This document shows, one piece after another, positions 544 through 2,179 of a DNA stretch of 2,827 nt (positions within the stretch are counted from its first letter, which is position 1; the number at the start of each line of letters is the position of its first letter). A program made the translations under genes and the position numbers. This DNA is from Enterobacteria phage CUS-3. The DNA lies in sequence record FN394987.1; one strand, given 5' to 3'. The notes below the pieces were generated by a model. It made no database searches. It saw nothing but the letters and a program-made list of their open reading frames with translations, and was not told the origin of the DNA.

Positions 544-1762
544 GCCATGTGTAAAATATTATGATGGCATTCTGTATCTGACGACCAGGGGGACATTAAG
601 TACTCAACCCGGTAGTTCATTGCACAGAAGCTCTGATTTAGGTACATCATGGAATTCTCTTCGCTTCCCAAATAATGTTCATCACTCAAACCTTCCTTTT
701 GCCAAAGTTGGCGATGAGCTGATTATTTTTGGCAGTGAGCGCGCATTTGGTGAGTGGGAAGGAGGAGAACCTGATAACCGTTATGCAGGAAACTATCCAA
801 GAACATTTATGACCAGAGTTAACGTCAATGAGTGGAGTCTGGATAATGTAGAGTGGGTTAATGTTACTGATCAGATTTATCAGGGCGGAATAGTTAACTC
901 TGCGGTTGGTGTTGGTTCAGTTTGTATCAAAGACAACTGGCTGTACTACATTTTCGGTGGGGAAGACTTTCTAAACCCATGGAGCATAGGGGATAACAAC
1001 AGAAAATATCCTTATGTTCACGATGGTCACNNNNNNNNNNNNNNNNNNNNNNNNNNNNNNNNNNNNNNNNNNNNNNNNNNNNNNNNNNNNNNNNNNNNNN
1101 NNNNNNNNNNNNNNNNNNNNNNNNNNNNNNNNNNNNNNNNNNNNNNNNNNNNNNNNNNNNNNNNNNNNNNNNNNNNNNNNNNNNNNNNNNNNNNNNNNNN
1201 NNNNNNNNNNNNNNNNNNNNNNNNNNNNNNNNNNNNNNNNNNNNNNNNNNNNNNNNNNNNNNNNNNNNNNNNNNNNNNNNNNNNNNNNNNNNNNNNNNNN
1301 NNNNNNNNNNNNNNNNNNNNNAGCGGCGGTGAAACAACGTCTTCAGCAGATGGTGCAATGATAACGTTGCATGGTTCCGGAAGCAGTACTCCACGTCGCG
1401 CGGTATATAACGCACTCGAACATCTTTTTGAGAACGGAGATGTTAAACCTTATCTTGATAATGTAAATGCTCTTGGTGGTCCGGGAAACAGGTTCTCGAC
1501 AGTTTATCTTGGCTCCAATCCTGTGGTTACCAGTGACGGAACATTAAAGACAGAGCCGGTCTCTCCTGACGAAGCATTGCTGGATGCCTGGGGTGACGTC
1601 AGGTATATCGCTTATAAATGGCTGAACGCTGTCGCTATAAAGGGGGAAGAAGGGGCGAGGATACATCATGGTGTAATCGCGCAGCAACTTCGTGATGTTC
1701 TTATTTCTCACGGACTCATGGAAGAAGAAAGCACAACATGCCGCTATGCCTTTCTTTGCTAT
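539..1762 (+). CDS. Tailspike/tail-fibre protein, endosialidase-like (sialidase Asp-box beta-propeller segment plus C-terminal intramolecular chaperone domain); partial at both ends, both ends inside N runs
   Basis: Frame 2 has no stop in any visible base from 539 to 1030 and from 1322 to 1762 (translated codon by codon). The two visible blocks are in the same frame across the 291-nt N run, which is a multiple of 3. Block 1: SEPCVKYYDGILYLTTRGTLSTQPGSSLHRSSDLGTSWNSLRFPNNVHHSNLPFAKVGDELIIFGSERAFGEWEGGEPDNRYAGNYPRTFMTRVNVNEWSLDNVEWVNVTDQIYQGGIVNSAVGVGSVCIKDNWLYYIFGGEDFLNPWSIGDNNRKYPYVHDGH. Block 2: SGGETTSSADGAMITLHGSGSSTPRRAVYNALEHLFENGDVKPYLDNVNALGGPGNRFSTVYLGSNPVVTSDGTLKTEPVSPDEALLDAWGDVRYIAYKWLNAVAIKGEEGARIHHGVIAQQLRDVLISHGLMEEESTTCRYAFLCY. 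The six-frame track lists no ORF here, apparently because no stop codon bounds it inside visible sequence. Start and stop are not visible; coordinates are the first and last visible codons. Confidence 0.7.
629..652 (+). other. Sialidase-type Asp-box (BNR) motif S-S-D-L-G-T-S-W
   Basis: Codons 629-652 read AGC TCT GAT TTA GGT ACA TCA TGG, i.e. SSDLGTSW. This fits the Asp-box consensus S-x-D-x-G-x-T/S-W that marks beta-propeller sialidases, including phage endosialidases. Only one copy is visible; others could lie in the masked 1031-1321. Confidence 0.6.
1031..1321. other. Run of 291 N (unresolved or masked), internal to the tailspike-like frame
   Basis: Directly visible. Length 291 = 97 codons, and the reading frame is the same on both sides. 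Confidence 1.
1532..1762 (+). other. C-terminal intramolecular chaperone domain (Peptidase S74, 'chaperone of endosialidase' type) with predicted Ser|Asp autoproteolytic site; domain continues into the N run
   Basis: Motif ...GSNPVVTS|DGTLKTEP...(about 35 aa)...IHHGVIAQQLRDVL. Ser is codon 1532-1534, Asp is codon 1535-1537, and GVIAQQ is 1670-1687. The pattern S-D-x-x-L-K followed 30-40 residues later by G-[LIV]-I-A-Q-[EQ] is the signature of the self-cleaving C-terminal chaperone of endosialidases, phage T5 L-shaped tail fibre and related tailspikes (family knowledge, from memory). Confidence 0.75.
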
Positions 1763-2179
1763 NNNNNNNNNNNNNNNNNNNNNNNNNNNNNNNNNNNNNN
1801 NNNNNNNNNNNNNNNNNNNNNNNNNNNNNNNNNNNNNNNNNNNNNNNNNNNNNNNNNNNNNNNNNNNNNNNNNNNNNNNNNNNNNNNNNNNNNNNNNNNN
1901 NNNNNNNNNNNNNNNNNNNNNNNNNNNNNNNNNNNNNNNNNNNNNNNNNNNNNNNNNNNNNNNNNNNNNNNNNNNNNNNNNNNNNNNNNNNNNNNNNNNN
2001 NNNNNNNNNNNNNNNNNNNNNNNNNNNNNNNNNNNNNNNNNNNNNNNNNNNNNNNNNNNNNNNNNNNNNNNNNNNNNNNNNNNNNNNNNNNNNNNNNNNN
2101 NNNNNNNNNNNNNNNNNNNNNNNNNNNNNNNNNNNNNNNNNNNNNNNNNNNNNNNNNNNNNNNNNNNNNNNNNNNNNNN
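1763..2179. other. Run of 417 N (unresolved or masked) hiding the tailspike 3' end, the intergenic region and the acetyltransferase 5' region
   Basis: Directly visible. It ends exactly one base before the ATG at 2180. Confidence 1.

Follow-up and report, generated by a model that had tools for sequence, protein, structure and literature searches.

What lies behind the 417 unread positions that separate a tailspike fragment from an acetyltransferase gene in a sequence record of Enterobacteria phage CUS-3 (FN394987.1), and do they conceal the beginning of that gene? The window analyzed here is the whole stretch of 2,827 nt. A sequence-only reading of it had proposed that, if the acetyltransferase is neuO-like, its true start codon and a phase-variable heptanucleotide tract must lie inside the N run, and that the end of the tailspike gene, the intergenic region and any promoter are hidden there as well.

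In the window, four sequenced fragments – the small terminase, siaK1 (the endosialidase gene, in two pieces) and neuO – have been concatenated, with runs of N between them, into a typing record of prophage CUS-3 of Escherichia coli K1. A megablast search of the phage collection with the visible flanks recovered 18 sister records, all of exactly 2827 nt (accessions FN394218, FN394986 and FN394988-FN395002). They represent different E. coli K1 isolates and are titled 'Enterobacteria phage CUS-3 partial proviral terminase gene, siaK1 gene and neuO gene, genotype GT_x'. FN394218 (L001) differs from the window by only 4 SNPs, at 572, 1379, 1500 and 1574; its N runs are at the window's own coordinates and its ATGTTGTTTTCC junction is identical. 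Its annotated coding sequences are the terminase small subunit (1..>438), siaK1 (<539..>1030 and <1322..>1762) and neuO (2180..>2827), the last of which is annotated as 5'-complete. The features of the window that matter for the argument are these:

439-538: N run of 100 nt
1031-1321: N run of 291 nt
1322-1762, + strand: third fragment, endosialidase tailspike siaK1, codons 748-894 of 981, an exact match to APEC O18 (L003 3001-3441)
1763-2179: N run of 417 nt, the unsequenced gap between two PCR fragments, of true genomic length
2180-2184, + strand: ATGTT, comprising the authentic start codon of neuO and the 2 nt between it and the position of the repeat tract
between 2184 and 2185, + strand: junction lacking (AAGACTC)n, with no placeholder
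2185-2827, + strand: remainder of neuO to its last sense codon CAA, stop excluded, an exact match to APEC O18 (L003 3990-4632)

The 291-nt run inside siaK1 corresponds to the true genomic distance, as judged against APEC O18, and the 417-nt run is likewise of true length, while the 100-nt run is a nominal spacer that replaces approximately 18 kb between the terminase and siaK1 fragments (the terminase fragment is at 22268-22705 in CP000711). For this reason the window does not represent one contiguous segment of a genome. At its right end, the last neuO sense codon (CAA, Gln216, at 2825-2827) closes the record, and the genomic TAA stop sits just beyond it and is excluded.

The coordinates and the length given for the N run at 1763-2179 are correct, and the run is an ordinary unsequenced gap in the deposited record. 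Window position 1762 and the neuO ATG are separated by exactly 417 nt in both CUS-3/RS218 (CP000711) and E. coli APEC O18. In the CP000711 locus (L002) position 1762 corresponds to 4445 and the neuO ATG is at 4863, and the fragments that flank the gap, of siaK1 (window 1322-1762) and of neuO (2185-2827), are 100% identical between APEC O18 and the window. The content of the gap is taken here from the loci of relatives, not from the source strain. The 417-nt segment is identical in RS218, APEC O18 and IHE3034. Among 13 uninterrupted loci collected from genomes, IMG/VR and metagenomes, 12 have it unchanged and the 13th has one SNP. With high confidence, the hidden sequence is predicted to comprise the following, in window-equivalent coordinates:

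1763-2026, + strand: the last 87 codons of siaK1 (DDYPAVYDDV...RLDLIEGKH) and its TAA stop at 2024-2026, translated from L002 4446-4709
2027-2179, + strand: the siaK1-neuO intergenic region, 153 nt, from L002 4710-4862
2168-2170, + strand: TAG in frame with neuO, four codons upstream of its ATG
2169-2172, + strand: AGGA ribosome-binding site, 7 nt before the neuO ATG

The closing of the tailspike frame had been expected within the gap, after an estimated 70-80 further residues; the visible fragment stops at aa 894, and 87 residues precede the stop, which in the CP000711 locus occupies L002 4707-4709. Pfam recognizes End_beta_propel, End_tail_spike and Peptidase_S74 (aa 818-878 of 981) in the APEC O18 orthologue of the tailspike, and the entire Peptidase_S74 'chaperone of endosialidase' match is contained in the third fragment of the window. 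The relatives' sequence also bears out the view that the gap covers the intergenic region, any promoter that it may hold and the ribosome-binding site, and the stretch from siaK1 to neuO yielded no terminator on the + strand. A 12-codon open reading frame (MFRWRQKYELIT*) follows the tailspike gene at window-equivalent 2027-2065 (L002 4710-4748), with its ATG overlapping the tailspike stop (TAAATG). It is retained with one substitution in phage vB_EcoP-720R6, and it is probably a chance occurrence.

Beyond the gap, ATGTTGTTTTCCGTTGATGATAATGGG begins at window position 2180, where the ATG is followed by TTGTTTTCCGTTGATG. The neuO product is a left-handed beta-helix (hexapeptide-repeat) polysialic acid O-acetyltransferase (Pfam Hexapep, E = 4e-11), and residues 3-216 of the window protein are 100% identical to residues 31-244 of PDB 3JQY, the NeuO crystal structure (E = 3e-142). 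The supposition that the gene is neuO-like was thus right. CP000711 and APEC O18 provide the full context, with neuO immediately after the tailspike gene and next to int. Because the 417-nt spacing is exact in CUS-3/RS218 and APEC O18, ATG 2180 is the true start of neuO, and PGAP begins its in-frame neuO coding sequence at the equivalent ATG.

Where, then, is the repeat? The sequence-only reading had seen none downstream of ATG 2180, and Tandem Repeats Finder agrees, detecting no tandem repeat anywhere in the window. At the window junction ATGTT directly abuts GTTTTCC, whereas the natural loci examined read ATGTT(AAGACTC)nGTTTTCC. In CP000711 (RS218), 19 perfect AAGACTC copies are identified by Tandem Repeats Finder at L002 4868-5000, after ATGTT and before GTTTTCC, with GTTTTCCGTTGATG starting at L002 5001 right after the array. 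ATGTT stands immediately before (AAGACTC)n in CP000711, APEC O18, IHE3034 and FDAARGOS_1296, and in all of the natural loci examined the tract falls between the positions equivalent to 2184 and 2185 of the window, not in the region represented by the N run. The numbers of AAGACTC copies in individual loci are:

RS218: n = 19
APEC O18: n = 18
IHE3034: n = 13
FDAARGOS_1296: n = 3
three complete IMG/VR or metagenome loci: n = 32, 18 and 7

A broader view comes from 60 complete E. coli genomes sampled out of 196 matches. The span of the locus is exactly 1506+7n in 59 of them, with n = 5-53; the 60th, which falls outside this rule, has an IS1 insertion and n = 3. For MS7163 the span gives n = 21, which is the published value (PMC13001214).

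Several other accounts of the record can be weighed against these observations. Since some sequence collections are said to include masked stretches, the Ns might be a mask that a scanning pipeline put over real, available sequence, with no gap in the deposit at all; public sister records, however, have N at identical coordinates, and their coding features are flagged as partial exactly at the edges of the N runs. Because of this sharing we take the Ns to be gaps in the deposit, and a mask is extremely improbable. Equally improbable is the placement of both the true start and the heptanucleotide tract within the 417-nt run, with ATG 2180 as an internal codon. The lack of a visible repeat downstream of 2180 speaks for it, as does the fact that neuO is known for such a tract (PMC3046976), but there is no room for either element: 264 nt of siaK1 and 153 nt of spacer use up all 417 positions, and Tandem Repeats Finder, run on the relatives' sequence, detects no tandem repeat in them, heptanucleotide or other. 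An upstream in-frame ATG was also looked for in the recovered sequence, and there is none; the TAG four codons before ATG 2180 has no start codon between it and that ATG. At each locus examined the tract is downstream of the ATG, and a sister record has neuO complete at its 5' end from 2180. The spacing refutes this placement, with about 70 relatives examined.

A further possibility takes the record at its word: the source strain would carry a truly repeat-less neuO (n = 0), phase-locked ON with minimal activity. If so, this would be a permanently ON, low-activity allele in which phase variation has been lost. The literal ATGTT+GTTTTCC is in frame and recombinant NeuO+0 is active (PMC3046976), but the distribution of alleles argues against it. 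All 18 of the sister records agree in length and in junction across different isolates; n = 0 occurs in none of the 60 sampled complete genomes, among which the minimum is 3; and exact matches to the junction with the tract number 7 in viral_contigs and 3 in metagenome_contigs, but neither collection yields one for the repeat-less form. Moreover, a passage in PMC3046976 credits the study behind the typing records with finding 2-93 copies in natural isolates. We consider a natural n = 0 allele very unlikely. Instead, the tract is missing uniformly from all sister records, and because records from different isolates share a single length and a single junction, we infer that the depositors deliberately took it out before deposition, so that the record reads as an artificial 'neuO+0' allele.

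The reading that we favor, and hold with little doubt, is that the N run is a true-length gap covering the end of siaK1 and a spacer, that ATG 2180 is the real start codon, that (AAGACTC)n has been omitted after 2184, and that the gene is the known phase-variable neuO. The 417 Ns would then stand base for base for the stretch between the siaK1 amplicon and the neuO amplicon, made up of the end of the tailspike gene (its final 87 codons and the stop) and an intergenic region with the neuO ribosome-binding site and a presumed promoter. The tract would normally lie 2 nt past ATG 2180, and would have been removed by the depositors. In a living strain, slipped-strand mispairing would shift n, NeuO would be translated completely only at values of n divisible by 3, and every 3 units would add one RLKTQDS heptad and raise activity, with NeuO O-acetylating the K1 polysialic acid capsule. 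Of this scheme, the present analysis supplies the spacing, junction, copy-number polymorphism and reading-frame logic; the slippage and the enzymology are from the literature. According to that literature, n changes through slipped-strand mispairing, and catalytic efficiency increases with each RLKTQDS heptad; NeuO is a trimer with a left-handed beta-helix fold and acts on K1 polysialic acid, whose O-acetylation guards against K1 phages and neutrophils; and transcription is modulated by DsdC (PMC3046976, PMC13001214, PMC9659370).

The sequence-only reading had also held that a ribosome-binding site directly upstream of ATG 2180, with no tandem repeats and no upstream in-frame start in the unmasked sequence, would indicate a non-phase-variable acetyltransferase. 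The relatives' sequence has precisely this arrangement, yet the gene is the classic phase-variable neuO; the description was accurate and the conclusion attached to it false, and as a test it was unsound.

The dependence on copy number is evident in alleles constructed in silico with n = 0-24, in which a full-length protein results only when n is divisible by 3: the product is 216 aa at n = 0 and gains 7 aa per 3 units, and at other values of n translation stops after 7-73 codons. RefSeq annotations follow the same pattern. From the equivalent of ATG 2180, PGAP calls a coding sequence of 258 aa when n = 18 and one of 223 aa when n = 3, and at n = 13 RefSeq has only a 111-aa downstream remnant. 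Among the 59 sampled complete genomes that obey the 1506+7n rule, 18 are in frame and 41 out of frame, close to the 34%/66% split across 64 genomes in PMC13001214. In MS7163, fragment analysis put 93% at n = 21 and the rest at n = 20 and n = 22 (PMC13001214). Copy number ranges from n = 3 to n = 53 among genomes, and the upstream 417 nt are, as noted, identical in 12 of 13 loci. The annotation-based check of phase state used RefSeq coding-sequence lengths; the presence of an annotated acyltransferase under the match was dropped as an independent marker of the ON state, since off-phase genomes also have a truncated acyltransferase coding sequence further downstream. Two poultry isolates, 729_021014_1_4 and 729_xx_1_3_yolk (NZ_CP160125.1 and NZ_CP160116.1), have n = 19 and n = 14 with nearly equal locus coordinates, and the difference may reflect drift of the tract within a lineage.

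Other peculiarities of the tract were seen in individual loci. In IMGVR_UViG_2537562173_000011 (L008 2150-2045, minus strand) the neuO tract is interrupted and has 15 units, with AAGCCTC and AAGTCTC variants every 6 units that generate a 42-nt higher-order repeat; at the protein level, RLKTQDS-like and SLKTQVS-like heptads alternate. If slippage occurred in steps of 42 nt, the length would change and the frame would be kept. Of the 10 IMG/VR and metagenome contigs with the start of neuO, six (L009, L011, L012, L013, L015 and L016) terminate within the AAGACTC tract. Since short-read assemblies break there, such data usually lose the copy number and phase state. In FDAARGOS_1296 (NZ_CP070066.1, L007 1002-1778) the last codons of the tailspike gene are interrupted by IS1A, whose insertion duplicated a 9-bp target, GGGAAGCAC; the tailspike is a pseudogene according to RefSeq, and the neuO gene downstream of IS1A is intact, with 3 repeats, in frame, encoding 223 aa.

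The intergenic part of the gap presumably holds the neuO promoter. Two candidates match the consensus, and comparison with a relative places a boundary close to one of them:

2092-2120, + strand: promoter-like TTGACG-17-AAAAAT in the hidden spacer
2135-2163, + strand: promoter-like ATGACA-17-TAAAAT in the hidden spacer, with an upstream TG (TGgTAAAAT)
2141-2179, + strand: the neuO cassette's own upstream part, only 39 nt, everything leftward being common to the neuO-less vB_EcoP-720R6

A scan for sigma-70-like promoters returned 8 sites against 5.6 +/- 2.2 expected from shuffles, which is the background level, so neither promoter-like site is established; a literature search found no mapped neuO promoter. 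The Lederbergvirus vB_EcoP-720R6 lacks neuO and has the same tailspike as CUS-3. In an alignment of the two, homology ends after ATGACA (L002 4823), in the context ...TTTTT(A/G)ATGACA, and resumes at L002 5674, 31 nt past the neuO stop. The neuO cassette thus occupies L002 4824-5673, approximately 850 nt (717 nt without the repeats), opposite L006 2300-2330 on the 720R6 side, and its left edge falls at window-equivalent 2140/2141. The -35-like ATGACA is in the phage backbone and the -10-like TGgTAAAAT box is in the neuO cassette, so that a promoter could have been created at the insertion junction itself.

The value of these observations is mainly practical, as the biology is already fully described: the window contains the published neuO/CUS-3 contingency locus in the form of a typing record, and nothing in it is new. 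At face value the record would lead an annotator to call neuO a plain, non-phase-variable acetyltransferase, and the most interesting element of the locus has very probably been removed without any mark. That a typing or short-read record shows no contingency repeat is no evidence of its absence, and caution is warranted with deposited records and short-read contigs, in which repeats may have been edited or collapsed.

Three comparisons place the window among known systems. One is with the other CUS-3 genotyping records, a series reportedly stemming from the study of Mordhorst et al. 2009 (Environ Microbiol 11:3154), which are like the window in their 2827 nt, four fragments, three N runs and repeat-less neuO junction, and differ from it by a few SNPs each, none being 100% identical across all fragments in three fragment searches. 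The NeuO/CUS-3 contingency locus itself is said to have been described by Deszo 2005, King et al. 2007, Bergfeld et al. 2007 and Schulz et al. 2011. The window agrees with that system in its protein (3JQY-identical over residues 3-216), in the position of neuO after the endosialidase tailspike gene and before int/argW, and in the ATGTT start context and the GTTTTCC that follows the tract position; unlike that system, it has no AAGACTC tract, very probably a property of the deposit and not of the biology. More widely, slipped-strand contingency loci with repeats in the 5' coding region include Haemophilus lic1, with CAAT, and Neisseria opa, with CTCTT. These share with neuO a short tandem repeat just past the start codon, a copy number that sets the frame, and variation of that number among otherwise identical loci. 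In contrast to them, neuO has a 7-nt unit and is phage-borne, and its in-frame tracts are translated to RLKTQDS heptads that grade the activity of the enzyme (PMC3046976).
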